Virus record (IMG/VR): IMGVR_UViG_2703718792_000011
Location: 1 to 19,384 of that record
Strand: one strand, 5' to 3'
DNA from: a virus
Lineage: Duplodnaviria; Heunggongvirae; Uroviricota; Caudoviricetes
DNA: 19,384 nt
The position numbers were made by a program, and so were the translations under genes. Shown here piece by piece: positions 1,765 through 15,472 of the stretch. Under the pieces are notes generated by a model that had not been told where the DNA came from, made no database searches, and saw only the letters and a list, made by a program, of their open reading frames with translations. The number at the start of each line of letters is the position of its first letter. Positions within the stretch are counted from its first letter, which is position 1.

Positions 1765-2007
1765 TTACTTCCTTTTCATGGCTCGTAATTTTTTCAGATG
1801 AGCTTCCTGCTCTGTTTCTGCCAGAATTTGTCGGTATTCCTGGTGATCGATCCGTTCAAACAGTTCATTAAAATCGTTTATTTTTACCGACTGTGTTCGC
1901 CCATCCATTCTTCTGTACAACACGATGTTATTTATGCAGCGAATAATTTTTACCGGGTAACCGGCACTGTCGGTATACAGTTGCCCTTGATTAATCAAAG
2001 CGAACAT
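1765..2007 (-). CDS. Hypothetical early-left protein (80 aa)
   Basis: The ORF track gives 1765..2130, but the internal ATG at 2007 is preceded by AGGAG (4-nt spacer) and follows the upstream gene stop at 2039. Protein MFALINQGQLYTDSAGYPVKIIRC... has no family I recognise. Confidence 0.6.
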   Translation of the reverse strand: MFALINQGQLYTDSAGYPVKIIRCINNIVLYRRMDGRTQSVKINDFNELFERIDHQEYRQILAETEQEAHLKKLRAMKRK

Positions 2008-2038
2008 TTTTTCTCCTGTTCCCTGAGTTGTGAGAACT

Positions 2039-2419
2039 TCAGAGCCGTAAGTTGGTAGCGGGTTCAATACTGATAATTTCTGCTGAGATAAGCATTCCGG
2101 CAAGCCATAGCTCTCCGGACAGGTCTTCATCCTGGCATGTCAGTTCGCCAATATTAATGGTGGCCATGATATCCGTTCCACCTGTGCGCTCATTCCGGAC
2201 TTCTTCATAAGGCAGCGTTTCGTACAGGCTTTCAATAGCGCAACTGATAACATCGAGTCCGGTCAGGTTGCCACCGACAGTGACTTCGAATGTTTCGCGG
2301 TATTCCCATAGTCCGAAAGTTAATCGAACAGTTTGTTTTGCCATGCGTCCGCATAACGTCAGATTTGGGTCATAGTTCATAACTTCAGATGAGGAACATT
2401 GTGTCTCGATGCTATTCAT
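2039..2419 (-). CDS. Hypothetical strongly acidic early-left protein (126 aa)
   Basis: ORF with AGGAG 6 nt upstream of the ATG; the SD overlaps the stop of the upstream gene. By approximate hand count about 20 D/E against 7 K/R. No recognisable domain. Confidence 0.65.
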   Translation of the reverse strand: MNSIETQCSSSEVMNYDPNLTLCGRMAKQTVRLTFGLWEYRETFEVTVGGNLTGLDVISCAIESLYETLPYEEVRNERTGGTDIMATINIGELTCQDEDLSGELWLAGMLISAEIISIEPATNLRL

Positions 2420-2423
2420 TTTG

Positions 2424-2696
2424 TTACTCCTGATTTTTTCGGATTGCCTTTTTCAATTTTTTACCGTTATTCACGTTACAGTAAATTTCGGCAAGTTCGC
2501 GTGATAACATTATTTCTCCGTTATTTTTATCTATAGCAATGTGATCGGGATTATCACGAATAAATTTCTTTATCATTGGCATTGCCATAAACTCTTCTGG
2601 CGTATAGATGCGTGTATGGCGGCGAACGTGTTTTATCACAGGTGTTTTATGTTTTGATTCAACCTGAAATACATTAATTTTATTTTGATTTGCCAT
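2424..2696 (-). CDS. Hypothetical basic early-left protein (90 aa)
   Basis: ORF in operon context, starting 7 nt after the stop of the upstream gene with no clear SD (translational coupling possible). K/R-rich, with a C-terminal KKLKKAIRK stretch. Confidence 0.55.
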   Translation of the reverse strand: MANQNKINVFQVESKHKTPVIKHVRRHTRIYTPEEFMAMPMIKKFIRDNPDHIAIDKNNGEIMLSRELAEIYCNVNNGKKLKKAIRKNQE

Positions 2697-2703
2697 GTGT
2701 AAT

Positions 2704-3285
2704 TTAATGTGTCACTGGTGCTTCTGGTATACCATGAGTATTCAGATCGTGAATCATTTCATCCAGAAGGAGTTCAAGCCCTTCGCGGCCCATAGCAGAG
2801 ACAATGAAACCATTATCAGGATCTGCGATGAGCATTTTTTGATAGAGAAACAGAACTCGCCCCATGCCTTCAGCTTCGCCATATTTTTCAATGAATCCCC
2901 ATTCGACATGGTTTTGCAGGGCAATGCGAATTGGTTCAGGGTATATACTCATGCAACCATATTTCCCCTTATAAATAACTGCACGATATGTAGTCCCATT
3001 ATCGTTAGGGATATCAACGGTGCCGTTCCTGACTTCCTCTTCATTTATAAACGTCGTAACATACAGCCAGCGCCATTGAGCAACTTTCATATCGACGGAT
3101 AATTTTCCCAGCAATCCGGCATCATCCGCTTCAGCAAGGCACTGAAGAATTCTTAAACCGCGTGAATTTGGATAATCATATTCACCATCATTAAGTCGCT
3201 GTACGGCCTCGGCATAATCTATGGTTGTATTGCCAATTTTTATACCGTGTGGCGTAACTTCTGGTCGGAACTCTGAATGATTCAT
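2704..3285 (-). CDS. Hypothetical early-left protein (193 aa), net acidic
   Basis: Start placed at the internal ATG 3285 (AAGGAG with 8-nt spacer) rather than the track start at 3342. ATGA start/stop overlap with the upstream gene. No recognisable domain. Confidence 0.7.
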   Translation of the reverse strand: MNHSEFRPEVTPHGIKIGNTTIDYAEAVQRLNDGEYDYPNSRGLRILQCLAEADDAGLLGKLSVDMKVAQWRWLYVTTFINEEEVRNGTVDIPNDNGTTYRAVIYKGKYGCMSIYPEPIRIALQNHVEWGFIEKYGEAEGMGRVLFLYQKMLIADPDNGFIVSAMGREGLELLLDEMIHDLNTHGIPEAPVTH

Positions 3286-3470
3286 AATGTTTGCTCCTTT
3301 GCTGGTGGAATAATCGTGTAACCCGCTCTTTTTGCCATCCACAGAAATGTATCCATGCAGCCAACGAATTCATTATCCAACAGATGTTTTGAGTAAATTA
3401 CTTCACCATTTTCAATGGTTAGCAACACTCTTGCTTTTTTATGGGTTATGTTTTGTTGTTTTTCTTCCAT
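3282..3470 (-). CDS. Hypothetical small early-left protein (62 aa)
   Basis: Start placed at ATG 3470 (GGGAGA with 7-nt spacer); stop overlaps the start of the downstream gene (ATGA). Confidence 0.55.
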   Translation of the reverse strand: MEEKQQNITHKKARVLLTIENGEVIYSKHLLDNEFVGCMDTFLWMAKRAGYTIIPPAKEQTL

Positions 3471-3474
3471 TGAC

Positions 3475-3588
3475 TTATCTCCCATATGCTTTGCGCAAAT
3501 ACAGGTTGGCTATATGAAGATAAGAATCTCCATGTTGTGCAATGAGGCAGGCAGTTTTATACGATGCCTTATGTTTCAGGAAAGTCAT
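3475..3588 (-). CDS. Possible small protein (37 aa), not in the ORF track
   Basis: Hand translation gives MTFLKHKASYKTACLIAQHGDSYLHIANLYLRKAYGR. AGGAG lies 8 nt upstream of the ATG, and its TAA stop lies within the SD of the next gene. Short, so uncertain. Confidence 0.25.
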   Translation of the reverse strand: MTFLKHKASYKTACLIAQHGDSYLHIANLYLRKAYGR

Positions 3589-3666
3589 GACATAATCTCC
3601 TGCGAATAAAGGTTGCAACAATCCCCGGCGATAAAACCGTAATAAACATTCAGGGAATATTTATTG

Positions 3667-4032
3667 TTATTGCGCTAATTCTTTTTCGGCAGCAGCTTTT
3701 GCATACTCACATGCAAAATTCAGAATTTCGCTGCCGAGTGTTTTCGTTTCGTGATTACTGGAAATATGTAATACCTGTGTTGCATGCAATAAATGATAAA
3801 CATTTACCGCAAATGAATCAGGCTCCAGACAAATGCCTTCATAATCATCTTGTTGTGAGGTTGTTTCTGTCATTGCTCCTGAAGTGCATGCGAGCCTGTT
3901 TTTGACAATTCTCTTTCCTCTAATCACTATATCGGCAACATCTATTGCCTTCACAACCTCCGGGAGAAGTTCCTGGTTTGTATAATCAAAGTTATCAACA
4001 TGGAGAACAGTTATGTTTTCGAACTTTTTCAT
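3667..4032 (-). CDS. Hypothetical early-left protein (121 aa), net acidic
   Basis: ORF with GAGGAA 3 nt upstream of the ATG at 4032. No recognisable domain. Confidence 0.65.
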   Translation of the reverse strand: MKKFENITVLHVDNFDYTNQELLPEVVKAIDVADIVIRGKRIVKNRLACTSGAMTETTSQQDDYEGICLEPDSFAVNVYHLLHATQVLHISSNHETKTLGSEILNFACEYAKAAAEKELAQ

Positions 4033-4160
4033 GGCTTCCTCAGCTGACTTATATGTTCTGCTATATAGCGAGTCTCAGAAGTGTTTTCATATTGAGACTG
4101 TTTCCGCAATGATTGATAAAAATGTTCGCATGTACCTTGAGGGGCGAAGCGGCGATTATG

Positions 4161-4667
4161 TCACCATTGGTATTGGTTCTTCCGTAGAAGAGCTTCGCGA
4201 GATAAGGGGCAAACTTGTTGAGATGCGTCATGGTGTTGCTGTTCCTCACTTTTTGGTTGCTCCGGAGGAGTAACCTCACCAGTTAACAGCCACATCGGAT
4301 CGCAGCCAAGAATATTTGCCAGTGGGATAAGCATACTGATAGTTGGTTCATACTCTCCGCTCTCCCACTGGATGATAATTTCTTCATCGAGATCGAGCAG
4401 CTTGGCGAGTTCGGCGGTTGTTAAGCCGCAGGCTTCGCGTTGGGTGCGAATCCGATTCTGGGAATTAATAGCTAAATTTTGTTTGCATAAACGCGACGCT
4501 GTGAGGCTATATTTTTGAGTTACAGCCAGGATGGAGCTGGCAAGTTCAATTAACTCAGGGTTATTGCTGCTATACAGTAGTGCACCAGCCCCGACTAAGA
4601 GCTGAATATTCTCAAGAGCATCGTGCTGATTTGTTGGTAACCCCATATACGATGACATTTTTCTCAT
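4161..4667 (-). CDS. Helix-turn-helix (XRE/Cro-C1 type) domain protein with an N-terminal extension of about 60 aa and a C-terminal tail; first gene leftward of cI
   Basis: 168-aa ORF. The central segment IRTQREACGLTTAELAKLLDLDEEIIIQWESGEYEPTISMLIPLANILGCDPMWLL matches the XRE HTH pattern. GAGGA precedes the start region. It has its own promoter (4708..4736) and is separated from cI by an intrinsic terminator. Confidence 0.7.
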   Translation of the reverse strand: MRKMSSYMGLPTNQHDALENIQLLVGAGALLYSSNNPELIELASSILAVTQKYSLTASRLCKQNLAINSQNRIRTQREACGLTTAELAKLLDLDEEIIIQWESGEYEPTISMLIPLANILGCDPMWLLTGEVTPPEQPKSEEQQHHDASQQVCPLSREALLRKNQYQW

Positions 4668-4707
4668 CCTCTATAATTGCTTTGGTGAGTTCGATACTTA
4701 TGCCATA

Positions 4708-4736
4708 ATAATAGGTTTACCGATTGTGTCTGTCAA
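4708..4736 (-). promoter_or_regulatory. Near-consensus sigma70 promoter for the HTH gene (TTGACA, 17 nt, TATTAT on the - strand); candidate PL
   Basis: On the - strand the -35 TTGACA is the complement of 4731..4736 and the -10 TATTAT is the complement of 4708..4713, with a 17-nt spacer. It lies about 40 nt upstream of the ATG at 4667. Confidence 0.55.
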
Positions 4737-4741
4737 TCGGT
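4719..4741. promoter_or_regulatory. Perfect 8-bp-arm inverted repeat ACCGATTG-N7-CAATCGGT overlapping the -35 and spacer of the promoter above; candidate operator
   Basis: Read directly from the sequence: ACCGATTG at 4719..4726 and CAATCGGT at 4734..4741. Confidence 0.5.
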
Positions 4742-4756
4742 TTATCGATTTTTTCC

Positions 4757-4782
4757 AAAAAAAAGCCCACTTAAGAGTGGGC
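4757..4782 (-). terminator. Rho-independent terminator for the leftward cI transcript
   Basis: GCCCACT-TAAG-AGTGGGC hairpin (4765..4782) preceded on the + strand by eight A (4757..4764), giving a hairpin plus U8 on the - strand transcript. Lies 20 to 45 nt downstream of the cI stop. Confidence 0.75.
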
Positions 4783-4800
4783 GGGTTAAATGATTTTTGC

Positions 4801-5493
4801 TTATGCAAAACGGTGTAGTGTCATAGGCCAACTGACAATTACTTTTCCGTCAATGTGAAGTTGTTCAAAGTCTTCCGGTTCGATAGCCCAATCCTTGTAA
4901 GCTGGGTTGTCAGATATCACCGTTAGAGTATCTTTGATTTTTTGAAGTCTTTTGATGTGCGATGTTCCAGAGTATGTAAAGGCGTATATACCATCACCAT
5001 TAAATGTGCGAACTGATACATCTACAAATACCAAGTCTTCAGGGTCTATTGTGCCTTTCATACTGTCGCCGTGGGCGTTTATTGCTTTGATTGCTGATGC
5101 TGGTCTGCCGCCAAAAACTCTTGATGCGTATCCTGGTTCTATCGCTATAGATCTGACAATGTCAGGAAAATCAGAGTTATAACTACCAGGTCCGCAACTA
5201 TATCTGATGTCTAAAACATCCACGACATACGAATCAGTAACCCAATCCTCAGAAATGTTACGTATTTGGTGTGAGTCTGCAGAGGTCACGATTTCCATTG
5301 GGCCAACACCCGATGCGAGCCATTCCGGGTTAACGCCCAAAACTTTTGCTATTTCGACTGTTTTTCTGGAACCGTTGGCTTTGTTAAGTAGTTGATTGAC
5401 ACTGGACTGAGCCATACCCACTTCTTTGGCCAGCCTACCTTGCGTAAATTTTGCGTTGCGCATAGCTAAATCAAGTCGTTCTGAAAATGTCAT
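4801..5493 (-). CDS. cI: cI-type prophage repressor (N-terminal HTH, C-terminal LexA-like S24 peptidase autocleavage domain)
   Basis: 230-aa ORF. N-terminus has an HTH (FTQGRLAKEVGMAQSSVNQLL). C-terminus has the Ser/Lys dyad context (GDSM ... HIKRL) typical of S24 repressors. GGAGG precedes the ATG. It is divergent from the cro-like gene. Confidence 0.9.
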   Translation of the reverse strand: MTFSERLDLAMRNAKFTQGRLAKEVGMAQSSVNQLLNKANGSRKTVEIAKVLGVNPEWLASGVGPMEIVTSADSHQIRNISEDWVTDSYVVDVLDIRYSCGPGSYNSDFPDIVRSIAIEPGYASRVFGGRPASAIKAINAHGDSMKGTIDPEDLVFVDVSVRTFNGDGIYAFTYSGTSHIKRLQKIKDTLTVISDNPAYKDWAIEPEDFEQLHIDGKVIVSWPMTLHRFA

Positions 5494-5527
5494 TGCGATT
5501 TTCCTCCCCTCTCTATCTTGGCTAGTC

Positions 5528-5543
5528 TATCGGCTTTCCGATA
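5528..5543. promoter_or_regulatory. 16-bp perfect palindrome TATCGGCTTTCCGATA in the cI/cro intergenic region; candidate OR operator
   Basis: Read directly from the sequence. A partially similar half-site, TATCGCTTTTCC, lies at 5566..5577 inside the putative PR spacer. Confidence 0.5.
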
Positions 5544-5561
5544 AATGTTCTAGGTTTAACG

Positions 5562-5590
5562 TTGAATATCGCTTTTCCTGTTGTTATTAT
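5562..5590 (+). promoter_or_regulatory. Candidate PR promoter for the cro-like gene (TTGAAT, 17 nt, TATTAT)
   Basis: -35 at 5562..5567 and -10 at 5585..5590, about 22 nt upstream of the cro ATG. Confidence 0.5.
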
Positions 5591-5612
5591 GCGTTCAATA
5601 GGAGATGCGATT

Positions 5613-5858
5613 ATGAAACATAAAGCCATAGAGAAAGCTATTGAGATTCTTGGAAGTCAGCAAGCCTTAGCCAAGCGATGCGGAAAGGCCCAGTCAACAG
5701 TCTGCGATTGGTTGAACTGCAAGAACAAGATTTCACCAGAATTTGTGCCGTTATTGGTTGCAGCTGTCGACGGAAAGATCCAGGCGTATGAATTTCGTCC
5801 AGACCTACCAGAGCTTTTTCCACATCCAAGCTTAGCGCACACAGAGGATGAGAAGTGA
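5613..5858 (+). CDS. cro: Cro-like HTH regulator (YdaS/Cro family), 81 aa
   Basis: Start placed at ATG 5613 (GGAGA with 7-nt spacer); the track start at 5562 lacks an RBS. The motif ILGSQQALAKRCGKAQSTVCDWLN matches the YdaS-type Cro HTH pattern as I recall it. Divergent from cI. Confidence 0.8.
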   Translation: MKHKAIEKAIEILGSQQALAKRCGKAQSTVCDWLNCKNKISPEFVPLLVAAVDGKIQAYEFRPDLPELFPHPSLAHTEDEK

Positions 5859-5928
5859 TGGTGGTGATATGAGCGAAAAAATAACTATTAAATACGATGG
5901 GGCAACCATTTCGATTACCCCAATCACA

Positions 5929-6222
5929 TTAGCGTTCGCTGAGAAGTTGTTGGTAAGCCTTAAAGGATGCGAACTGCATTCTACCTTCGGCATTGATTCC
6001 AATGCCTTCGCTTGTACACCAGGCGATGAACTCGGCTGTATCCGCTTCAACTTTAATAACTCGTTGCCCGCTTCTTTCGACACGCTTAATCAATTTTTCA
6101 GCGTCGTGTTTCCACTCGGTGTAACTGTCGGAGAGCACATCAGCATCAGTAAAAATATTTTTGAGCTCATGATACTGAATCGCATCGCGAAACCAGAATA
6201 AACCAACGGCCTGAACTTTCAT
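5929..6222 (-). CDS. Hypothetical protein (97 aa) encoded antisense within the rightward early operon
   Basis: AAGGAGG lies 6 nt upstream of the ATG at 6222. It is convergent with cro and divergent from rha. No recognisable domain. The overlapping + strand ORF 5848..6201 has no RBS. Confidence 0.7.
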   Translation of the reverse strand: MKVQAVGLFWFRDAIQYHELKNIFTDADVLSDSYTEWKHDAEKLIKRVERSGQRVIKVEADTAEFIAWCTSEGIGINAEGRMQFASFKAYQQLLSER

Positions 6223-6335
6223 GTCGAACCTCCTTTGGTTCTTTTGTTTATAGGGATCAACAGGATAACTGAAGGAAGGTTCGGCACCAATAAGTACGAA
6301 TGTGCGGAATCTTAAAAGAATTTATCCGTAAGGAG

Positions 6336-7049
6336 ATGGCAGTGAACACCGCAATTTTTAACGGCAAAGCATCCATGACCAGCCTTGAAATCGCAGAGTT
6401 GGTGGGCAGCCAACACAAAGATGTTAAGCGCAGCATTGAAAGGCTCATGGATAAGGGGATTATTCGAAGTGCGCCAATGGCGAATTTCGAAATAATCAAC
6501 AACTTAGGATTAAAACGAAATGTAGGTGCTTACATCTTCGAAGGCGAACAAGGTAAGCGCGACAGCATCATTGTCGTCGCACAGCTTTGTCCCGAATTCA
6601 CAGCCCGCCTGGTAGATCGCTGGCGTGAACTGGAAGAACAGATCCGTAAGCCAATGAGCGAAATCGAAATGGTTGCCGCGATGGCTCTTGAAGCTGTTCG
6701 TCAGCAGAAACGGATCATTCAGGTGGAAGAAAAAGTCAGCCACGTTGCCGAAACAGTTGAGCAAATCAAAAAGGGCACCATTCGTGAGGGCTATGCCGGA
6801 TATCGCCAACTGAAAGCGAAAACCGGTTTGTCAGATGATAAATGCCGCAATCTGGTGAACGCTTATCAAATTCCTACAGACACCCACGAGTTCATGACGC
6901 CGGACGGATTGTTATCACGTCGCGCAATTGTTGCTGTGGAACCGTTTATGGCTGCTTTTTATCGGGTTATGGAGGAAGCAGAACCGCGAGGGACTCGCTG
7001 GTATCACCCGAAAATGGGGTTATTTCAGGTTATTGGCTGGCAGCGGTGA
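6336..7049 (+). CDS. rha: Phage regulatory protein Rha family (antirepressor-like)
   Basis: The N-terminal motif MTSLEIAELVGSQHKDVKRSIERL is characteristic of the Rha family as I recall it. AAGGAG abuts the ATG at 6336, so an alternative GTG start at 6342 (6-nt spacer) is possible. Confidence 0.8.
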   Translation: MAVNTAIFNGKASMTSLEIAELVGSQHKDVKRSIERLMDKGIIRSAPMANFEIINNLGLKRNVGAYIFEGEQGKRDSIIVVAQLCPEFTARLVDRWRELEEQIRKPMSEIEMVAAMALEAVRQQKRIIQVEEKVSHVAETVEQIKKGTIREGYAGYRQLKAKTGLSDDKCRNLVNAYQIPTDTHEFMTPDGLLSRRAIVAVEPFMAAFYRVMEEAEPRGTRWYHPKMGLFQVIGWQR

Positions 7050-7073
7050 AAAAAAGCCGGGTAGTGACCCGGC
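7049..7073 (-). terminator. Rho-independent terminator oriented for leftward transcription, immediately 3' of rha
   Basis: GCCGGGT-AGTG-ACCCGGC hairpin (7056..7073) preceded on the + strand by seven A (7049..7055), giving a hairpin plus U7 for a - strand RNA. On the + strand the hairpin is followed by UCGCUC, not a U-tract. Confidence 0.55.
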
Positions 7074-7265
7074 TCGCTCAACGTTGATACAGGCAACTGC
7101 ATAAAGCAGGCCCAAGAATCCAAGAACGTTAACAAAAATACCAGTAAGCATATGAATGTTTCAAGCCTAAATATTGATTCTGCAATTTCGGGACGGTACA
7201 CTGTCCAAGCACCTTATAAAGCGGGTGCCGGGATTGGCGTCCTGGAAATGTTATCGGCGATATAT

Positions 7266-7285
7266 GACGCGCCAGCGTCTTTTTT
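7266..7285 (+). terminator. Candidate rightward intrinsic terminator or attenuator upstream of the cII-position gene
   Basis: GACGC-GCCA-GCGTC hairpin (7266..7279) followed by TTTTTT (7280..7285). The stem is only 5 bp, so it is weak. Confidence 0.35.
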
Positions 7286-7451
7286 ATCGTCTGCGTCTGC
7301 GCACACCCAAATTATGGTGGGCTGGACGGGGGCACCGAAAGGTGCGCCGGTTTCCGATAACGCCGGTTACGCCAACCCCGTTCAGTTCACCACCAGCGAA
7401 ATTGGCGTTTCCGGTGGTGAAGGTAATTCACTGTTATCGGAGGCTGCCATC

Positions 7452-7814
7452 ATGGCTACAGTCCCAACTTCCCCATACCTGAAAATCGAAGTCGTCAACG
7501 GCAAGGCCGTTATTTTCTCCCTGCATGTTGCCTGCCATTTCAAGCGCATGCACCAGAACATCGTCGACAAAATCGAGTATCTGAACTGCTCGCGCGAATT
7601 TTTTACCCGCAATTTCATACCGGGTACTTATCACATCTATGGTGACTCCCTGCGTGGTTATTACATCACCCTTGATGGCCTGATGATGCTTCAGCTTGGG
7701 TTAAGTCTACGCACAATGCGGTACTACGAGAGCTGCATTGAAGCATTCCATGAGGCAGGGAACAGCCTGAATCTTACCGCTTTCCGCCGTAATCAGTGGG
7801 AGGCGCGTCCATGA
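7452..7814 (+). CDS. Hypothetical early-right protein (120 aa) in the cII position; possibly a CII/YdaT-like regulator
   Basis: Start placed at ATG 7452 (GGAGG with 8-nt spacer); the track's upstream extension to 7152 has no RBS and contains a terminator-like hairpin. The YdaT-like label comes from position after a YdaS-type cro only, not from a recognised motif. Confidence 0.6.
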   Translation: MATVPTSPYLKIEVVNGKAVIFSLHVACHFKRMHQNIVDKIEYLNCSREFFTRNFIPGTYHIYGDSLRGYYITLDGLMMLQLGLSLRTMRYYESCIEAFHEAGNSLNLTAFRRNQWEARP

Positions 7815-8005
7815 TTAGTTACGAAATTATTATTTCCACAACTGAATACAGAAACGATGTATCAGTTCGCACGGATGTATCTGTCTGGCACCGTCGCTAT
7901 AAATCCAGAAAAACGGCAGAACTGAAAGCGGCAGAGATGTGTGAAACCATCTCAATGAAAGGTAGCCCGGTTAAATACGTAACTACGGCGGAGGTGCGTC
8001 CATGA
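7811..8005 (+). CDS. Hypothetical small protein (64 aa)
   Basis: ATGA start/stop overlap with the upstream gene and GGGAGG upstream. Protein begins MISYEIIIS. Confidence 0.6.
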   Translation: MISYEIIISTTEYRNDVSVRTDVSVWHRRYKSRKTAELKAAEMCETISMKGSPVKYVTTAEVRP

Positions 8006-8226
8006 TCCGCTACATCGTTAATTCCCTGTATCACCGATACAACCGTTGCCCCCGTGTGGGGCAGTGGTTCGCCACCAGCAACGGTCACGTTCTGCGGGTT
8101 TGCCTGGTCAGCACCGAAAGCCAGAAAGTTGTGTGTGAATTACTGGGGCGTAACTACACCATTAGCTATCCGTTGATGGCGTTTCAGTCCGGAAAAATGT
8201 TTAAACGCCTGGGAGGTGCTCTATGA
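8002..8226 (+). CDS. Hypothetical small protein (74 aa), with a start context nearly identical to the preceding gene
   Basis: ATGA overlap and GGAGGTGCGTCCATGAT context. Protein begins MIRYIVNSL. Confidence 0.6.
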   Translation: MIRYIVNSLYHRYNRCPRVGQWFATSNGHVLRVCLVSTESQKVVCELLGRNYTISYPLMAFQSGKMFKRLGGAL

Positions 8227-9032
8227 GCATGGAGCTGATGGTTAAAGCGATGAAAATTCGTGTGGGGAATCCATTGCGAAAACTGGTTCTGATTAAGCTG
8301 GCTGATAATGCCAGCGATCAGGGCGAGTGCTGGCCCAGCTATCAGCATATTGCTGATCAGTGCGAGATTAGCAAACGTTCTGTGATGAATCATATTACGG
8401 CTCTTTGTGAATCGGGACTGGTAAAAAAAGTTTCCCGGAAAGGTGAAAAAGGCAACTCGAGCAATATTTATCTTCTTCGTCTTGATGGTGCAAAAGATTC
8501 ACCAGGTGGTAGTGCAAATAATTCACTACCTAGTGCAACAAATTCACCAGGTGGTGCAGGAGTTGCACTAGGGGGTAGTGCAGGAGATTCACCCAGAACC
8601 AGTCACTCTTTTGAACCAGTCAAAGAACCAGTCAATGAATCAACTATTGGCGCATCCGCTGACGCGTCTGCACCAGCGCGTTCTGCCCGACAGGAATATT
8701 CACCGGAATTTGAACAGGCCTGGCAGGAATATCCCAAACGTGCTGGTGGCAATTCCAAGTCAGCAGCCTTCAAAGCCTGGAAAGCCCGTATCAGGGAGGG
8801 AATAAAACCGGAGACCATGCTTGATGGCGTGAAGCGGTATGCCGCCTGGGTACGAGCTACCGGAAATATCGGCACACAGTTCGTGAAGCAGGCTGCGACG
8901 TTCTTTGGACCCGATCGTCACTTCGAGGAATCTTGGCAACAGCCAGCCGCTCCCGGAGGTGGGCGAACTACCGGCCTCCCGATCTCGGGATTCAGTGAGC
9001 AGGACTACGGTTCAACGAACTTCAACTGGTGA
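8223..9032 (+). CDS. Replication initiation protein (lambda O-like, N-terminal winged-HTH) with internal origin iterons
   Basis: 269-aa ORF with an N-terminal HTH (LADNASDQGECWPSYQHIADQCEISKRSVMNHITALCESGLVKK), a low-complexity G/S/A/P linker encoded by the repeats at 8498..8607, and a C-terminal domain. GGGAGG upstream and ATGA coupling. Confidence 0.8.
   Translation: MSMELMVKAMKIRVGNPLRKLVLIKLADNASDQGECWPSYQHIADQCEISKRSVMNHITALCESGLVKKVSRKGEKGNSSNIYLLRLDGAKDSPGGSANNSLPSATNSPGGAGVALGGSAGDSPRTSHSFEPVKEPVNESTIGASADASAPARSARQEYSPEFEQAWQEYPKRAGGNSKSAAFKAWKARIREGIKPETMLDGVKRYAAWVRATGNIGTQFVKQAATFFGPDRHFEESWQQPAAPGGGRTTGLPISGFSEQDYGSTNFNW
8498..8607. repeat. Putative origin of replication: four to five tandem iterons of 21 to 24 bp with internal dyad symmetry
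   Basis: Units begin near 8498, 8521, 8543, 8564 and 8588. Examples: attcaccaggtggtagtgca, aattcactacctagtgca, and ttgcactagggggtagtgca (TGCACTA/TAGTGCA arms). A moderately AT-rich tract follows at about 8604..8650. Confidence 0.6.
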
Positions 9033-9051
9033 TTTTTCGAGGTGATGAACA

Positions 9052-9942
9052 ATGTTTGAACAGTTAAAGAAACACTACGCACAACACGACAAAGCGCAAT
9101 TGCTCAACCGCAGGGCGGAACTGGAGGAGGAGATGCAGTTTGCCCGTGTCGGGAAGCGTCCGTGGCGCTGTGAACACTGGCTGACAAGCGAGGATACTGC
9201 TGAGTGTGAGAAACACGGGAAATACACACGTCTGGTGTTGAAAGGGCCAGATGTTCGTGGGGAAACCATCAAACGGGTGTCTGGTTGCCCGACCTGCATT
9301 GCGAATGAGCTGGATCAGGTACAGGAGGCGTTACGCATCCTGAAAGTTCATGAATTACTCGACAGGGCTGGTATTGCCCGCCGCTTCCAGAACTGCGAGT
9401 TTGAGAATTATCAGGCGGTGAATGCTGACGCACAGAGAAATCTTGAGGCTTGTCGGCGCTATGCCGGTTCATGGGAGAAGTGTCTTGCTGCGGGTACCAG
9501 CATGGTCATGATTGGCAATTGTGGTACCGGGAAAAATCATCTGGCTGTATCAATGGCAAAAAATATTATTCGCCACCACCAGGCGACCGTCGAAATTACG
9601 GATGTTATGCGACTGACCCGCGCTGTGAAAAATACCTGGCGCCACAATTCAGAGCGTACCGAGGATGAAGTTCTCGCTCATTTCGCCTCACTGGACCTGC
9701 TGATCATCGATGAGGTTGGTGTGCAGTTCGGCACGCCTACAGAGATAACCATCCTGCAGGAAATCATAAATGCGCGTTACGAAAGCGTTTTACCGACAAT
9801 TTTGATCAGCAACCTGACGTTTGAACAGCTTAAAGAATCCATTGGTGAACGGATTGTGGATCGCGTTACTGATGGTGGGTGTAACTGCCTGGTGTTTGGT
9901 TGGGAAAGCTACCGTGCGCATATCAGAGGTGTGGCAGCATGA
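9052..9942 (+). CDS. DnaC-like helicase loader (AAA+ ATPase, IstB/DnaC family) with a Cys-rich N-terminal region
   Basis: Walker A GNCGTGKNHLAVSMA and Walker B LLIIDEVG. N-terminus carries Cys pairs (CEHW...CEKHG...CPTC). GAGGTGA upstream. Confidence 0.9.
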   Translation: MFEQLKKHYAQHDKAQLLNRRAELEEEMQFARVGKRPWRCEHWLTSEDTAECEKHGKYTRLVLKGPDVRGETIKRVSGCPTCIANELDQVQEALRILKVHELLDRAGIARRFQNCEFENYQAVNADAQRNLEACRRYAGSWEKCLAAGTSMVMIGNCGTGKNHLAVSMAKNIIRHHQATVEITDVMRLTRAVKNTWRHNSERTEDEVLAHFASLDLLIIDEVGVQFGTPTEITILQEIINARYESVLPTILISNLTFEQLKESIGERIVDRVTDGGCNCLVFGWESYRAHIRGVAA

Positions 9943-11339
9943 CAAAACCGACAAATCCGGCATGGCGTAACGATGATCTGGAAGGTGCCGTGATTGGCGC
10001 GTTTTTTCTGCGTGGGGCTGATCCGGAAGTGATGGATATTCTGGCCACGCTTCCGGCGGATGTCTTTTTCGTGCGTCAGTACAGGGATATTTACGCGGGG
10101 ATTTGCAGACAGGCTCGCGTATCCGGCGTCATTGACCCCGTGCTGCTGTGCAATGAGATGCCGGAACTTGCCCCGGTGATTACCGACACCGGGCGTAAAA
10201 CCTGGGTGAAGTCTTCACTGGAGCACTATGTTGCAGCGCTGCGGCGAAATGCCGCACTGCGCGATGCAGAAAAAACACTGACCGAAGCATTACAGAATTT
10301 ACGTGATGCGCATACCTGTGAAGCAGCCGAGGATGCTCTGAAGGATGCGCAGAACATGATGGTCACACTGTCGACAGGAAAGGGCGTCATTCAGCCGGTT
10401 CACATTGATGATGTCCTTCCGGAAGTGGTCGACCGTGTTGAATGCCGCAATCAGGGACTGGAGAAATCCAGGGCGCTGATGACCGGTATTGATGAACTGG
10501 ACGCAAAAACGGGCGGTATGGAGCCCGGAGACCTGGTATTCATTGCCGCCCGTCCTTCGATGGGGAAAACCGAACTTGCGCTGGACATCATCGACAAGGT
10601 GACTGAGCAGGGGCATGGTGTGCTTCTGTTCACCATGGAGATGGCGAACATCCAGATTGGTGAACGTATGGTGTCTGCGGCTGGAGGAATGCCGGTATCA
10701 CGTCTTAAGTCTGTTGCCCGTTTTGAAGATGAAGACTGGGCGCGTTTCTCGCAGGGCGTGGGACGAATGACGGGGCGTAATATCTGGATGGTGGACCAGG
10801 CAAACCTGACCATTGATGAGATATGTGCAACCACGAAGCACCACCGGATGAAACACCCGGAAACGGCGCTGGTGGTGGTCGATTACCTCGGCCTGATTAA
10901 AACCCGCAGCACGGGGCGTCACGACCTTGCGGTGGGGGAAATCTCAAAGGGACTTAAAAGCCTGGCAAAATCCGGCGGTTTTCCGCTGATTGCTCTTAGC
11001 CAGCTCTCCAGAGGCGTGGAATCCAGACCCAATAAACGCCCCATGAACTCGGACCTGAAAAATTCCGGAGAAATAGAGGCGGATGCAGACATCATTCTGA
11101 TGCTTTACAGGGATGAAGTGTACAACCCGGATACGCAGGCCAGGGGCATCGCAGAAATCAATATCACGAAACAACGTAACGGTTCTCTGGGGACGATTTA
11201 CCGGCGTTTTTATAACGGACATTTTCTGCCTGTGGACCAGGAGAGTGCCCGGGTGCTTTCCACACCCATGACTCCGGGCAATCCGCGCAGATACAGCAAT
11301 AACCGCATGTCGGGCAGTAAAACGGAGCGTTTATTTTGA
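9939..11339 (+). CDS. Replicative DNA helicase, DnaB family
   Basis: DnaB-type motifs (GIDELDAKTGGMEPGDLVFIAARPSMGKTELALDI, VVVDYLGLI, SQLSRGVESRPNKRPMNSDLKNSGEIEADADIILMLYRDEVY). ATGA overlap with the DnaC-like stop. Confidence 0.9.
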   Translation: MTKPTNPAWRNDDLEGAVIGAFFLRGADPEVMDILATLPADVFFVRQYRDIYAGICRQARVSGVIDPVLLCNEMPELAPVITDTGRKTWVKSSLEHYVAALRRNAALRDAEKTLTEALQNLRDAHTCEAAEDALKDAQNMMVTLSTGKGVIQPVHIDDVLPEVVDRVECRNQGLEKSRALMTGIDELDAKTGGMEPGDLVFIAARPSMGKTELALDIIDKVTEQGHGVLLFTMEMANIQIGERMVSAAGGMPVSRLKSVARFEDEDWARFSQGVGRMTGRNIWMVDQANLTIDEICATTKHHRMKHPETALVVVDYLGLIKTRSTGRHDLAVGEISKGLKSLAKSGGFPLIALSQLSRGVESRPNKRPMNSDLKNSGEIEADADIILMLYRDEVYNPDTQARGIAEINITKQRNGSLGTIYRRFYNGHFLPVDQESARVLSTPMTPGNPRRYSNNRMSGSKTERLF

Positions 11340-11593
11340 ATAACAGAACAACCACTGTTTCACCGGAACAACTTCGTCGGCAGGCACAGGAGATGCTTCG
11401 TTGTGCTGAACAGATGGAAAAAACGAGCGTGGCAAAGGATACGCTCCGCAAGCAGCTTACTCCGGCGCTGCGTGATCTGCTTCAGGCAAAACACCGCACA
11501 CAAAAGGCGGTGGATGAGCTGGTGGATTGCGTGGCGGAACTGGAAGGCCAGGTAAGCCAGTTTGAAACGCTGGTGAAGGAGTTTACTGCGTGA
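11336..11593 (+). CDS. Hypothetical small protein, probably coiled-coil (85 aa with a TTG start; shorter if an internal ATG is used)
   Basis: ORF begins at a TTG overlapping the DnaB stop. Heptad-like charged sequence. Start codon uncertain. Confidence 0.45.
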   Translation: MNNRTTTVSPEQLRRQAQEMLRCAEQMEKTSVAKDTLRKQLTPALRDLLQAKHRTQKAVDELVDCVAELEGQVSQFETLVKEFTA

Positions 11594-11639
11594 TGGCTGA
11601 ATTTTTTTCTTCTGCGTTCATGCAATACCGTTCGCTGAG

Positions 11640-12635
11640 GTGACCGTGAGAGCACTGCTGACCCCTGAAATTGCCCCGCGTATGGGGATCGTATTGTTCA
11701 GGCCAGGTTCAGAGCTGATGCCCCTGTTTATGCAGGGGCGTGTCCTGCTGGAGCCTGAGCCGGAGCGTTATTCATCTTTCGCCAGTGGTGCCGTTCCGGC
11801 GGCATCACAACCGCTGGCGGATGATCCTGCCGTTCGGGCCGTGTTCCGCAATGAGGCAGTGATCCGTCGTGCTGGTGGCGTGGAATGTCTTGAAAGCTGG
11901 TTACTTCGTGAAAAAGGCTGCCAGTGGCCTCATTCCGACTGGCACAGCGAGAACATGACCACAATGCGACACGCCCCGGGCGCAATCCGTCTGTGCTGGC
12001 ACTGCGATAACCAGCTGCGCGATCAGTTCACGGAACGGCTGGAATCAATGGCAACGGATAACTGTGCCCGTTGGGTGTTGTCTGTTGTGCGTCGGGATCT
12101 CGGTTTTGATGATAGTCACGTTGTGACAATGCCGGAACTGTGCTGGTGGCTGATTCGTAATGACCTGGCGGATGCCTTACCGGAAAGTGCAGCCCGTAAG
12201 GCACTGAGATTACCGAAGCCTGTTGTGCCGTCTGTCACCCGGGAAAGTGACCTTGTGCCTTCGGTTCCTGCCACCAGCATTATCCAGGATAAAGCGAAAA
12301 AGGTGCTGGCGCTGAAAGTGGATCCGGAGTCGCCGGAGTCTTTTATGTTACGCCCCAAACGTCGCCGCTGGGTTAACGAAAAGTACACGCGCTGGGTTAA
12401 GACACAGCCGTGTGCATGTTGTGGAAAGCCTGCTGATGATCCCCACCACCTGATAGGCCACGGTCAGGGTGGAATGGCTACAAAAGCGCATGACCTCTTT
12501 GTGTTGCCTTTGTGCAGAAAGCATCACGACGAGCTGCATGCGGATACCGTGGCATTTGAAGAGAAGTATGGCTCCCAGCTGAAGCTGATATTTCGTTTTA
12601 TCGATCGCGCGCTGGCAATTGGCGTGCTGGCGTAA
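11640..12635 (+). CDS. DUF968-type prophage protein with a C-terminal Cys/His-rich HNH-like motif
   Basis: The C-terminus PCACCGKPADDPHHLIGHGQGGMATKAHDLFVLPLCRKHHDELH resembles a zinc-binding HNH-like module. As I recall, a DUF968 gene (ydfU) sits next to Q in E. coli Qin prophage. GTG start at 11640 is uncertain. Confidence 0.55.
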   Translation: MTVRALLTPEIAPRMGIVLFRPGSELMPLFMQGRVLLEPEPERYSSFASGAVPAASQPLADDPAVRAVFRNEAVIRRAGGVECLESWLLREKGCQWPHSDWHSENMTTMRHAPGAIRLCWHCDNQLRDQFTERLESMATDNCARWVLSVVRRDLGFDDSHVVTMPELCWWLIRNDLADALPESAARKALRLPKPVVPSVTRESDLVPSVPATSIIQDKAKKVLALKVDPESPESFMLRPKRRRWVNEKYTRWVKTQPCACCGKPADDPHHLIGHGQGGMATKAHDLFVLPLCRKHHDELHADTVAFEEKYGSQLKLIFRFIDRALAIGVLA

Positions 12636-12648
12636 GTGGAGAACGAGC

Positions 12649-13401
12649 ATGAACCTTGAAGTCTTACCGAAATATTACTCCCCGAAATCTCCAAAACTGA
12701 GCGATGACGCACCGGCGACAGGCTCTGGTGGTTTAACAATTACGGATGTGATGGCTGCGCAGGGGATGGTGCAGTCGAAAGCACCGCTTGGGTTTGCCTT
12801 ATTCCTGGCAAAAGTTGGTGTTCAGGATCCTCAGTTTGCGATTGAAGGTCTGCTCAATTACGCGATGGCACTGGATAACCCGACATTGAATAAATTGAGT
12901 GAAGAAACCCGGCTACAGATCATTCCTTACCTTGTGAATTTTGCCTTTGCTGATTATTCCAGGTCTGCGGCAAGTAAGGCTCGCTGTGAGCATTGTGCTG
13001 GTACTGGATTTCATAATGTATTGCGCGAAGTGGTGAAACACTCCAGAAGCGGGGAATCTGTTATCAAGGAAGAGTGGGTGAAGGAACTATGTCAGCATTG
13101 CCATGGTAAGGGAGAAGTCAGCACAGCGTGCAGAGGGTGTAAGGGTAAAGGTATTGTCCTGGATGAAAAAAGAACCCGGCTTCATGGTGTGCCTGTTTAT
13201 AAGATTTGTGGGCGTTGCAATGGCAACCGGTTTAGCCGTTTACCAACCACACTGGCGCGGCATCATGTCCAGAAACTGGTACCGGACCTGACGGATTATC
13301 AGTGGTACAAAGGATATGCAGACGTTATTAATAAACTGGTTACAAAGTGCTGGCAGGAAGAAGCGTATGCTGAATCGCAATTGAGAAAAGTGACAAGATA
13401 G
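12649..13401 (+). CDS. Q: Late-gene antiterminator Q-like protein
   Basis: Start at ATG 12649 (GGAGAA with 4-nt spacer). Paired Cys/His motifs (CEHCAGTG, CQHCHGKGE, CRGCKGKG, CGRCNG) and a position immediately upstream of a promoter, short terminator and lysis genes. Confidence 0.7.
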   Translation: MNLEVLPKYYSPKSPKLSDDAPATGSGGLTITDVMAAQGMVQSKAPLGFALFLAKVGVQDPQFAIEGLLNYAMALDNPTLNKLSEETRLQIIPYLVNFAFADYSRSAASKARCEHCAGTGFHNVLREVVKHSRSGESVIKEEWVKELCQHCHGKGEVSTACRGCKGKGIVLDEKRTRLHGVPVYKICGRCNGNRFSRLPTTLARHHVQKLVPDLTDYQWYKGYADVINKLVTKCWQEEAYAESQLRKVTR

Positions 13402-13432
13402 ATAATTTTCGCCGAAGATGTCGACGTGATGC

Positions 13433-13461
13433 TTGCATTTTTCAAAAAATATGGATAAGAT
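13433..13461 (+). promoter_or_regulatory. Candidate late promoter PR' (TTGCAT, 17 nt, TAAGAT)
   Basis: -35 at 13433..13438 and -10 at 13456..13461, about 30 to 60 nt downstream of the Q stop. Confidence 0.4.
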
Positions 13462-13504
13462 TTTCTCAACGATGGGCCTTGTATGTCTACCGTTGGTAAA
13501 TGTC

Positions 13505-13531
13505 AAAAACCCGCCACTGAGCGGGTTTTTT
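13505..13531 (+). terminator. Rho-independent terminator (candidate tR') about 45 nt downstream of the putative PR'
   Basis: AAAAACCCGC-CACTGA-GCGGGTTTTTT: GC-rich stem with a six-T tract at 13526..13531. Confidence 0.7.
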
Positions 13532-13653
13532 GTACCTGTAAACTTGCTGCAGTACAGTAAACACGCTGGTGGTCGTGAATACTGACTTTTTATCTTGCTG
13601 GCTTTTTAGACAAGAGTTATTGGTATGTCATGTTAACCAGAAGGGAAAAAGAC

Positions 13654-13857
13654 ATGCTAAAACAGCAAGATATGACAGAAACCGCCGCCGCAGTCCTTCA
13701 TTTCTTACCTGCTGACAAGTGGGTAACGCCACGCATGATGACGAGAACTACCGGAGTAAGCGAAGCCCGGTGCCAGTTAATACTGACTCAGTTAGTTCTG
13801 GCGGGTCTGGCGAAGGATAACGGCGGGTACGGGAATAAATTCAGACGCTGCCAGTAA
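13654..13857 (+). CDS. Small hypothetical protein (67 aa), possibly a winged-helix DNA-binding protein; first gene of the methyltransferase moron
   Basis: Start placed at ATG 13654 (AAGGGA with 7-nt spacer); the track start at 13630 lacks an RBS. Sequence AAVLHFLPADKWVTPRMMTRTTGVSEARCQLILTQLVLAGLAKDNG looks HTH/winged-helix-like; this is inference. Confidence 0.5.
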   Translation: MLKQQDMTETAAAVLHFLPADKWVTPRMMTRTTGVSEARCQLILTQLVLAGLAKDNGGYGNKFRRCQ

Positions 13858-14007
13858 TGGCGGTTTCCTGCTGTGAAAATGGGCGGCTGGTGGGTGTTGG
13901 TAGCACCTGCCAGCCATTCGCTCATGCTTACTGGTCACAAGCGAACCACGGCCCACTGCTTTAGCGCAAAAGCAGAGTGAGCCTACCAGAGTTACGCTTA
14001 CTGATCC

Positions 14008-15060
14008 ATGAAAAACACTGTAAAAATAAACAGTGTTGATTTAATCAACGCTGATTGCCTGCATTTTATTCAGTCCCTGCCTGATGATTCCATTGACCTG
14101 ATTGTTACCGATCCGCCTTACTTCAAGGTGAAACCCAACGGTTGGGACAATCAGTGGAAAGGGGACGAAGATTACCTTAAGTGGCTGGACCACTGTCTGG
14201 CCCAGTTCTGGCGGGTGTTAAAGCCTGCCGGAAGCCTTTACCTGTTCTGTGGGCATCGCCTGGCATCTGATATTGAGATCATGATGCGTGAACGTTTCAA
14301 CGTGCTTAACCATATCATCTGGGCGAAGCCGTCCGGACGTTGGAATGGGTGTAATAAAGAAAGTCTGCGCGCATATTTTCCTGCCACAGAGCGCGTTCTG
14401 TTTGCTGAACATTACCAGGGGCCATATCGCGGCAAAAGTGACGGCTATGCGGCAAAAGAAAGGGAACTCAAACAGCACATAATGGCACCGCTGATATCGT
14501 ATTTCAGGGATGCTCGTGCCGAACTGGGTATAACGGCAAAACAAATTGCCGAAGCCACAGGTAAGAAAAATATGGTTTCCCACTGGTTTGGTGCCAGTCA
14601 GTGGCAGTTGCCGAACGAGGCTGACTATCGGAAGTTACAGGCACTGTTTTCCCGTATAGCGGCAGAGAAGTTTCAGGAACAACAACTGGAACAACCACAC
14701 CACCAGCTGGTGGCATCTTATGATTCACTGAATCGCAAATATTCTGAATTGCTGGATGAGTTTAAATCTCTCCGGCGCTATTTCTCCGTATCAGTCTCCG
14801 TGCCTTATACCGATGTCTGGACGCATAAGCCCGTTCAGTTCTACCCGGGTAAACATCCGTGCGAGAAACCGGCGGATATGCTCCGGCAAATAATCAATGC
14901 CAGTAGTCGCCCTGGTGATCTGGTTGCTGATTTCTTTATGGGATCCGGTTCCACAATAAAAGCAGCAATGGCGCTGGGGCGTCGGGCGTTAGGTGTTGAA
15001 CTTGAGTCAGAGCGGTTTAATCAGACGGTGAAAGAGGTAAGTGAACTGTTGGGGAAATAA
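14008..15060 (+). CDS. Orphan DNA methyltransferase (beta-class N6-adenine or N4-cytosine MTase; DPPY motif precedes the AdoMet-binding FxGxG motif)
   Basis: Motif IV IVTDPPYF near the N-terminus and motif I FFMGSGSTIKAAMALGRRALGVE near the C-terminus. No restriction endonuclease gene is adjacent. Confidence 0.9.
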   Translation: MKNTVKINSVDLINADCLHFIQSLPDDSIDLIVTDPPYFKVKPNGWDNQWKGDEDYLKWLDHCLAQFWRVLKPAGSLYLFCGHRLASDIEIMMRERFNVLNHIIWAKPSGRWNGCNKESLRAYFPATERVLFAEHYQGPYRGKSDGYAAKERELKQHIMAPLISYFRDARAELGITAKQIAEATGKKNMVSHWFGASQWQLPNEADYRKLQALFSRIAAEKFQEQQLEQPHHQLVASYDSLNRKYSELLDEFKSLRRYFSVSVSVPYTDVWTHKPVQFYPGKHPCEKPADMLRQIINASSRPGDLVADFFMGSGSTIKAAMALGRRALGVELESERFNQTVKEVSELLGK

Positions 15061-15067
15061 TTCTGGT

Positions 15068-15089
15068 GGCCACGTTGCGTGGCCTTTTT
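15068..15089 (+). terminator. Rho-independent terminator between the methyltransferase and the holin gene
   Basis: GGCCACG-TTG-CGTGGCC hairpin followed by TTTTT, 8 nt after the methyltransferase stop. Confidence 0.6.
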
Positions 15090-15136
15090 ATTTCCAACAC
15101 AGCACCCGCAAATATCGCGAGGTGAGAGATGACGAA

Positions 15137-15472
15137 ATGCCTCATAACCCAAATACCTGGCCGGACTGGCTGGAGTTGTTTCAGAGCTGGTGGCGTGGAG
15201 ACACGCCGCTGGGTGCAGTGATTATGTCGATCGTTATGGCTGGTTTGCGCATCGCCTATTTTGGCGGTGGTGGTGGCTGGAAGCGAAAAACGCTCGAGAT
15301 TTTGCTCTGTGGCGCTCTGACGCTGACCTTTGCATCCGCTCTTGAGTATGTCGGATGGCCTAAATCACTTTCTGTTGCCATTGGTGGCGGCGTGGGGCTG
15401 ATCGGTGTCGATGCTATTCGTGGGGCTGCAATGCGAGTAATCGGTAACAAGTTTGGTGGCTCTAAGGAGTAA
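15137..15472 (+). CDS. S: Holin (lambda S-like class I holin)
   Basis: Start placed at ATG 15137; the track extension to 15041 overlaps the methyltransferase and the terminator. Hydrophobic segments (AVIMSIVMAGLRIAY, LEILLCGALTLTFASALEYV, SVAIGGGVGLIGV) and a charged C-terminus. Immediately upstream of the endolysin. Confidence 0.8.
   Translation: MPHNPNTWPDWLELFQSWWRGDTPLGAVIMSIVMAGLRIAYFGGGGGWKRKTLEILLCGALTLTFASALEYVGWPKSLSVAIGGGVGLIGVDAIRGAAMRVIGNKFGGSKE

Follow-up and report, generated by a model that had tools for sequence, protein, structure and literature searches.

The question raised by this locus is whether tandem repeats that lie inside a replication initiator gene serve as the replication origin of the prophage that carries them, or whether they reflect only the protein that they encode. 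The window analyzed here is the whole stretch of 19,384 nucleotides (positions 1 to 19,384 of IMG/VR record IMGVR_UViG_2703718792_000011), and it is a 100% match to a lambdoid prophage of Escherichia coli strain 377323_2f. The initiator gene occupies 8223..9032 on the + strand and encodes a protein of 269 amino acids (open reading frame (ORF) list and translation; RefSeq WP_024235181.1). We infer that the segment 8486-8634 is probably the replication origin of this prophage, situated inside the part of its own initiator gene that codes for a linker.

Five Tandem Dyad Repeats in the Initiator Gene

Two programs, Tandem Repeats Finder and a repeat finder, detected a 21-24-nt period at 8486-8592, and five tandem units were delimited at 8486-8594, with start-to-start spacings of 24, 21, 21, and 24 bp. 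A pattern search gave five exact matches to GTGCA-N4-WTKCAC, which form the cores of full 19-bp units of the type T(A/G)GTGCA-N5-T(T/G)CAC(C/T)(A/C). These units, listed without strand, are iteron 1 (TGGTGCAAAAGATTCACCA, 8486..8504, core 8488-8502), iteron 2 (TAGTGCAAATAATTCACTA, 8510..8528, core 8512-8526), iteron 3 (TAGTGCAACAAATTCACCA, 8531..8549, core 8533-8547), iteron 4 (TGGTGCAGGAGTTGCACTA, 8552..8570, core 8554-8568), and iteron 5 (TAGTGCAGGAGATTCACCC, 8576..8594, core 8578-8592). The minus strand also matches the motif at four of the five units (with at most one mismatch), and therefore each unit is palindromic, with internal dyad symmetry. The half-sites are about 10-11 bp apart, and the units follow one another at 21 or 24 bp, or two helical turns. 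Iteron 5 is preceded by a G5/C5 spacer (8571-8575) that is found family-wide, and it abuts the conserved element described below. The array of five units lies between the regions coding for the N-terminal domain (aa 1-89) and the C-terminal domain (aa ~157-226).

When both strands of the window were searched with up to one mismatch allowed, 10 motif matches were found against 2.2 expected, and none of 200 shuffles gave as many. The sole match outside the array, a palindrome at 7417-7431 (+) with one mismatch (GTGAAGGTAATTCAC) inside an ash-family ORF, was rejected as a further site, being within chance expectation. Repeat finding and pattern search revealed no second iteron-like array or motif cluster anywhere in the 19-kb window, the region 8100-9150 contained no DnaA box with 0 mismatches, and Rfam gave no match in the origin region.

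An earlier reading made from the sequence alone (the sequence-only reading) had described tandem repeats of 21 to 24 bp at this place, and both repeat finding and pattern search bear this out. The dyad that it gave as an example, TGCACTA-GGGGG-TAGTGCA, is present at 8564-8582, where the halves of units 4 and 5 that face each other across the G5 spacer form a junction dyad. It had put the array at 8498-8650; the array is indeed there, but its start is at 8486, 12 nt before the claimed position. The further statement that the repeats lie within a low-complexity linker of the initiator agrees with an AlphaFold2 model, in which residues 91-156 were disordered, with a predicted local distance difference test (pLDDT) value of ~30, and these residues are exactly the stretch encoded by the repeats and the 10-mers that follow them.

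Conservation of the Repeats as DNA

Homologues were gathered with N-domain peptides only, and comprised 12 annotated phages, 80 viral contigs, and 80 GTDB loci. The viral contigs were all close, near-identical relatives, and diversity was supplied by the GTDB scan, which used one genome per species and yielded loci with 67-86% N-domain identity from genera that include Pseudomonas, Enterobacter, Xenorhabdus, Aeromonas, Shewanella, Vibrio, Marinomonas, and Aliivibrio. It was found that tandem dyad repeats directly follow the winged helix-turn-helix coding region in every full-length homologue, and that three to seven dyad repeats occur at the equivalent position in ~130 non-identical homologues, which come from phages and prophages of Gammaproteobacteria.

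Homologues with the window-type recognition helix, (K/R)RSV(M/I)(N/S)H, contain GTGCA-N4-WTKCAC three to seven times, and one unit is typically out of frame with the others (spacings of 23 and 22). In homologues from Pseudomonas, Enterobacter, and Aeromonas, a single gene contains the iteron in both frame 0 and frame 1, so that it is translated as 'SANNSL' or 'VVQEIHQ'. Nearly all loci have GGGGGT or CCCCCT as the spacer in front of the last iteron; the two are one duplex in opposite orientations, yet encode Gly-Gly and Pro-Pro, respectively. Among 53 non-identical close relatives, with a position counted as polymorphic if variable at 5% or more, the cores had 0 of 55 polymorphic positions and the spacers 11 of 55 (Fisher p=0.0006). 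Copy number varies by whole units, with 5, 6, and 7 units in 53, 2, and 1 loci, respectively. Therefore, the iterons in different frames, the G5/C5 spacers, the invariant cores, and the whole-unit changes in copy number indicate that it is the DNA, and not the peptide, that is selected.

A Winged-Helix Initiator of the HTH_36 Family

The protein is an HTH_36 winged-helix initiator of an uncharacterised family; its RefSeq name is just 'helix-turn-helix domain-containing protein'. Pfam HTH_36 (PF13730) matched residues 17-67 with 43.6 bits, above the gathering score (cut-off 25), and DnaD_N was a weaker Pfam match. The best PHROG was phrog_270, 'replication initiation protein' (E=4e-88), and the best relatives listed, out of 5709 family members, all carry PF13730. 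The initiator had no Rep_3-type Pfam match, and no match to Phage_rep_O (PF04492) at E<=0.01, for which lambda O as a control scored 123 bits.

The AlphaFold2 model, built on 30 homologues, has a winged helix at residues 1-88 (pLDDT 79-93), with helices at 3-11, 17-29, 40-47, and 51-64 and a β-hairpin wing at 67-85, and, beyond the disordered linker, a small helical C-terminal domain at residues 161-226. The N-terminal winged-helix DNA-binding domain (aa 1-89), delimited by the model, Foldseek, and alignment, is encoded by 8223..8489 (+), and the recognition helix predicted from the model (aa 51-64) by 8373-8414 (+). Foldseek against the PDB returned generic winged-helix matches only (E ~0.01), the DnaD N-domain among them, and a sequence search found no relative of the initiator in the PDB.

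Covariation of the Recognition Helix with the Iteron Half-Site

Dyads were found de novo, and the loci (numbered with the prefix L) were grouped by recognition-helix sequence. The helix type ..V(M/I)NH, that of the window and many other loci, goes with GGTG(C/A)A-N5-T(T/G)CACC; ..(V/A)MRH goes with GGTGAC-N5-GTCACC (L004, L137, L150, L158, and L171), and RTTAINH with GGTGTA-N5-TACACC (L156 and L170). Further types are KSAVK(A/E)H with TGTGCC-N7-GGCACA (L005 and L011), ..VR(N/D)H or KASARTH with TATGCC..GGCATA (L003, L006, L008, and L009), RSTVKSH with GGGGCAG-GAG-CTGCCCC (L007), and RSTVR(K/R)H with GTAGGC-type sites (L155, L159, L160, L164, and L172). In 46 representatives, residues 55-56 and the half-site class shared 1.51 bits of mutual information, a value that is inflated by relatedness, and 0 of 5000 label permutations gave a value as high.

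The helix segment aa 51-57 of L137 differs from that of the window only by N56R (KRSVMRH and KRSVMNH, respectively), and in its iterons GTGAC replaces GTGCA; that is, N56 accompanies GTGCA, and R56 accompanies GTGAC. This pairing is the pattern that cognate initiator-iteron pairs should look like. The repeats are thus very likely the binding sites of the prophage's own replication initiator, and as predicted initiator binding sites they would therefore mark the replication origin of the prophage.

A Conserved Element Adjoining the Array

The iterons are directly followed by the conserved element CCAGAACCAGTCACTCTTTTGAACCAGTCAAAGAACCAGTCA (8593..8634, listed without strand), which contains three exact direct copies of the 10-mer GAACCAGTCA at 8596, 8613, and 8625, with 12- or 17-nt spacing. 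The sequence CACC(C)AGAACCAGTCACTCTTTTGAACCAGTCAAWGAACC (~37 nt) was found after the last iteron in 44 of 46 diverse representatives, mostly with 0-3 changes, and the 10-mer (at most one mismatch) in 132 of 136 non-identical homologues, in 2 to 5 copies. The linkage also holds in the other direction: all 117 viral contigs that have the exact 27-mer and enough upstream sequence encode this N-domain upstream of it. That the element stays nearly invariant while the N-domains have diverged to ~70% identity speaks for purifying selection acting on the DNA, and against a recent spread.

The codons of the element are fixed, R always being AGA and S always AGT or TCT, whereas synonymous sites of the N-domain are randomised; in the same genes, the top-codon fraction was 0.96 in the element versus 0.50 at conserved residues of the N-domain. 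The 10-mer is present in two frames of one and the same gene, as AGA-ACC-AGT-CAC (RTSH) and GAA-CCA-GTC (EPV), and the element survives frame-changing deletions of 2 nt and 5 nt (L149, L154, L158, L161, and L162). Therefore, the fixed codons, the two frames, the frame-changing deletions, and the two-way linkage indicate a constraint on the DNA that is tied to the initiator family and, judged from these loci, not to the helicase system, which varies. By position, the element can be taken to correspond to the AT-rich region of lambda, and on that analogy there is about an even chance that it is an unwinding site or a second contact of the initiator. A literature search for the 10-mer returned unrelated primers only, and no description of an HTH_36 origin or of the GAACCAGTCA element was found in the openly searchable literature, subscription literature aside.

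Two truncated initiator genes were also seen, in L114 (Pseudomonas bharatica) and L143 (Erwinia tracheiphila), of 133 and 118 aa and ending in ...HPEPVTLLNQ, which is the conserved element in the alternative frame with a stop shortly after. They are probably frameshifted pseudogenes, and would encode an N-domain-only protein.

Exchange of the C-Terminal Domain and Helicase-Delivery Genes

The C-terminal domain coding region (the helices of aa 161-226 and the tail), delimited by megablast, by comparison with L295 and L296, and by the AlphaFold2 model, extends over 8643..9029 (+). It is followed by a gene for a DnaC-like helicase loader at 9052..9942 (+; Pfam IstB_IS21, E=2e-16; phrog_50; NCBIfam DnaC, E=2.7e-45, which is below the equivalog cut-off) and by a gene for a DnaB-family replicative helicase at 9939..11339 (+; Pfam DnaB_C, E=1e-73; TIGR00665, E=5e-93; RefSeq annotation), the start of which was taken from RefSeq, the ORF list having a TTG at 9900 instead.

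In megablast comparisons, some prophages with other N-domains matched only nt 421-744/810 of the gene. Two E. coli prophages, L295 (in NZ_CM128602.1) and L296 (in NZ_CP077538.1), have unrelated N-domains fused at 'TIGASADAS...' (~8643) to the window-type C-domain, with the same DnaC-like and DnaB-like genes downstream. Just before this junction, they have direct repeats of ACAGAGAWTAC with a 12-nt period, in 3-4 copies (nt ~1750-1800 of L295 and ~1740-1800 of L296), and short 12-nt-period direct repeats beside iterons may be a general feature of such origins. L296 also has GGGAAAC-type repeats upstream.

Conversely, mEp460 (L002) and SfV orf39 have the window-type N-domain, the iterons, and the element, but a different C-terminal tail that ends in ...DYSQIPAGFRG, and there is no helicase or loader gene downstream of the initiator. 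A DnaT C-terminal motif has been reported in the related DopC protein (PMC5509034), which suggests that the mEp460 and SfV phages may recruit the host primosome instead. Elsewhere, the N-domain and origin module is paired with DnaB alone, with a toprim primase-helicase, or with P-like proteins. Clustering of the C-terminal 110-aa segments against the next ORF gave no clean one-to-one association and was too coarse, and so the case for modularity rests on the individual loci. On this evidence, the initiator has two domains, of which the C-terminal one accompanies the downstream helicase-delivery genes; the N-domain, the iterons, and the element form one evolutionary module, and the C-domain with the helicase-delivery genes another.

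A Proposed Mechanism and Its Alternatives

The sequence-only reading had likened this locus to the lambda ori, and the lambda-ori-like interpretation is supported by the parallels to lambda O and P that we found: iterons within the gene, a two-domain initiator, an exchangeable C-domain, and DnaC-like and DnaB-like genes next to it. Its proposal of a likely origin with initiator binding sites is strengthened by the dyads in ~130 homologues, the covariation with the helix, the frame-independence of the DNA, and the invariant cores. Its term 'O-like' is apt as functional analogy and fails as a family name, the protein being of the HTH_36 and not the Phage_rep_O family; it is an analogy because there was neither a Phage_rep_O match nor an N-domain profile alignment to lambda O. 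Its 'moderately AT-rich tract' after the repeats proved to be a marginal AT excess (GC 0.45-0.47 at 8580-8669), and the place of such a tract is taken by the conserved 10-mer repeat element, of which that reading made no mention.

Because the initiator has no detectable homology to lambda O, the mechanism that we propose is transferred from lambda by analogy. Dimers of the N-domain would use the recognition helix (aa 51-64) to read the half-sites (A/G)GTGCA / T(T/G)CAC(C/T), with residue 56 contributing to specificity, and would build a nucleoprotein complex resembling the O-some on the array. This complex might destabilise the adjacent conserved element, or contact it directly, possibly as single-stranded DNA (ssDNA), so that the element would play the role of the lambda AT-rich region. 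The C-terminal domain would then recruit the DnaC-like and DnaB-like pair of the phage onto the opened DNA, and the host primase and polymerase would take over after helicase loading. More broadly, and at odds that we put a little below even, HTH_36 phage initiators across the Gammaproteobacteria may share an undescribed bipartite origin, consisting of variable, helix-readable dyad iterons and the near-invariant 37-nt GAACCAGTCA element; the element, which is not AT-rich, would in such an origin be a sequence-specific site of unwinding or ssDNA contact for a conserved part of the initiator or for a conserved host factor.

Could the repeats instead be the by-product of a flexible Gly/Ser/Ala/Pro-rich linker that was duplicated in frame, with selection on the protein and no cis role of the DNA? 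The window taken by itself is compatible with this, as the unit spacings are all multiples of 3, the units encode similar heptapeptides (SPGGSA, NNSLPSA, and TNSPGGA), the linker is predicted to be disordered, and unit number varies by slippage. This explanation is nevertheless very improbable in the face of the iteron being kept in two frames of one gene, of G5 and C5 spacers that are interchangeable although they encode GG and PP, of invariant core and variable spacer bases, and of half-sites that covary with the recognition helix; nor does a peptide repeat need units that are DNA palindromes. The dyads could also be operators of the initiator or of another regulator, acting in autoregulation, as a transcriptional roadblock, or in partition, with the true origin elsewhere in the prophage. 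In iteron plasmids of the RepA/pi type, dimeric Rep proteins bind inverted repeats and autorepress; the window units are likewise inverted repeats, and no strong AT-rich region adjoins them. We consider this quite unlikely, as the window has no other array, the sites are intragenic and not at a promoter (no promoter-like site was found in 8200-9200), the adjoining invariant element and the module junction suit an origin better than an operator, and lambda O likewise initiates from dyad iterons (PMC7466680).

A separate alternative concerns the GAACCAGTCA element, which might serve as a recombination linker where the modules meet, or as a partner-binding peptide motif (PRTSHSFEPVxEP), and not be a part of the origin. 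The idea of boundary sequences is familiar from lambdoid mosaicism, the element lies exactly at the point of exchange of the C-terminal modules, and the encoded peptide is conserved too. We regard this as unlikely, given that the synonymous sites are fixed, that recurrence of the 10-mer in two frames and its survival of frame-changing indels speak against selection on the peptide only, and that unrelated initiator families have their own 12-nt-period direct repeats (ACAGAGAWTAC) at the equivalent place.

Several points weigh against the reading of this segment as the origin. There was no detectable sequence homology between the initiator and lambda O, the N-domain profile giving a probability of 6% in hhalign; an HHpred link of the lambda O N-terminus to PF13730 has been published (PMC5509034), and was not reproduced here. 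Scans for DnaA boxes, integration host factor sites, and GATC clusters in and around the origin found nothing meaningful. The AT excess is small, the 40 nt after the element having 55% AT versus 49% for the gene, and the mean difference in the family being +5%, holding in 29 of 39 loci. Phylogenetic non-independence is not corrected for in the covariation and conservation statistics. The role of the element is a guess, in that an unwinding site, an ssDNA contact, a host-factor site, and a recombination linker are all possible. For the non-lambdoid 'Eru' Shiga toxin (Stx) phages, several of which have HTH_36 proteins, a published account states that nothing is known about the proteins that replicate them (PMC8951638).

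Comparison with Known Replication Systems

A phage origin inside its own initiator gene is ordinary as an instance. In lambda, the ori lies in the middle of O and consists of iterons and an adjacent region that unwinding requires and that O binds as ssDNA (PMC7466680). The iterons of lambda are palindromes of 18 bp at spacings of 20, 24, and 23 bp, with an A-rich tract after them. The window is similar in having the origin in mid-initiator gene and, as in lambda and the lambdoid Stx-phage origins (which have six iterons), 4-6 tandem dyad repeats of 18-19 bp at ~20-24-bp spacing. Lambda O also resembles the window initiator in having a DNA-binding N-domain, an ori-encoded linker, and a C-domain for recruitment of the helicase-delivery protein of the following gene, a role that is predicted for the window initiator. 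In contrast, the initiators belong to different families, HTH_36 and Phage_rep_O, and the iteron sequences are unrelated (GTGCA-N4-ATTCAC in the window and TCCCTC-N6-GAGGGA in lambda). Where lambda has an A-rich 40-bp tract, the window has a sequence-invariant element of GAACCAGTCA direct repeats, and the partner genes are a DnaC-like gene and the phage's own DnaB in the window, whereas lambda has P.

HTH_36 proteins have been reported in the Eru5, Eru6, Eru8, Eru11, and Eru13 replication regions of Stx phages (PMC8951638). The window N-domain is 96.6% identical to those of Stx2a_WGPS2 (the Eru6 reference) and mEp460, both of which have the same iterons and conserved element as the window, and Rha and Ash genes lie upstream in the window, as in Eru6. 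The Eru papers classify gene content only, and describe no origin, iterons, or mechanism. The 'replication protein' of SfV (orf39) and mEp460 (gp43) is unlike the window initiator in its DnaT-like tail and in the absence of downstream DnaC/DnaB genes. A domesticated O-like gene, DopC, is found beside dopE in Cellvibrionales and Oceanospirillales (PMC5509034). DopC resembles the window initiator in its HTH_36 N-domain, its variable C-terminus (with a DnaT_C motif), and an adjacent helicase-matchmaker gene; it is, however, reported to be without iteron-like sequences and not to act as an origin (PMC5509034), whereas the window gene keeps five iterons and the element.

Iteron plasmid origins offer a further comparison, as the site array of the window likewise adjoins short direct repeats. 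In plasmids such as RK2, pSC101, R6K, F, and P1, the unwinding element has short direct repeats next to the arrays of initiator sites, and is contacted as ssDNA by some Rep proteins. Rep monomers bind the plasmid iterons, which are asymmetric direct repeats located outside the rep gene, and DnaA boxes usually go with them. An iteron-plasmid (Rep_3/RepA-like) origin was rejected for the window, where the units are palindromic and intragenic and neither a DnaA box nor a Rep_3-type match was found.

These results place a probable origin and predicted initiator sites in this prophage type, and the annotation 'helix-turn-helix domain-containing protein' could become 'replication initiator containing ori'. 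The N-domain and ori module is shared with Eru6-type Stx2a phages, the replication of which matters for toxin output, and a bipartite origin, if true, would define the ori of the medically relevant Eru5/Eru6-type Stx phages. The helix-iteron pairs form a natural specificity series of one fold with at least seven iteron types, which is useful for the study of DNA recognition by winged helices and for orthogonal replicons. Both the invariant GAACCAGTCA 10-mer element, with whatever reads it, and the readable helix-iteron code merit bench work.

Prophage Context and Other Features of the Window

By megablast, this prophage type matched 1230 of 5426 complete E. coli genomes. The early genes are, in order, integrase and excisionase, a LexA-family (S24 peptidase) repressor (4801-5493, minus strand), and a cro-like gene, with the Rha and Ash regulators and then two small ORFs between the cro-like gene and the initiator gene. 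Downstream of the DnaB-family helicase gene are DUF968/NinG-like, Q antiterminator, lysis, and terminase genes.

The window is rich in Chi sites (GCTGGTGG), with 19 in its 19.4 kb where 0.6 would be expected, and no shuffle out of 200 had as many; 14 are on the + strand, and one (8742-8749) lies within the coding region of the initiator C-domain. This excess fits the Chi-rich lambdoid phages without their own Rec module that were recently described (PMC12315714). The RefSeq annotation shows no evident Rec module in the early-left region, where no search aimed at one was made.

Two Rfam matches at gathering score, the isrK Hfq-binding RNA at 7209-7285 (+, 63.7 bits) and the C4 antisense RNA at 7310-7397 (+, 82.8 bits), both fall inside the 'ash family protein' ORF (7152-7814). 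These matches suggest a P1 immI-like or isrK-type antirepressor control module, and the start of the ash-family ORF as annotated may be wrong.

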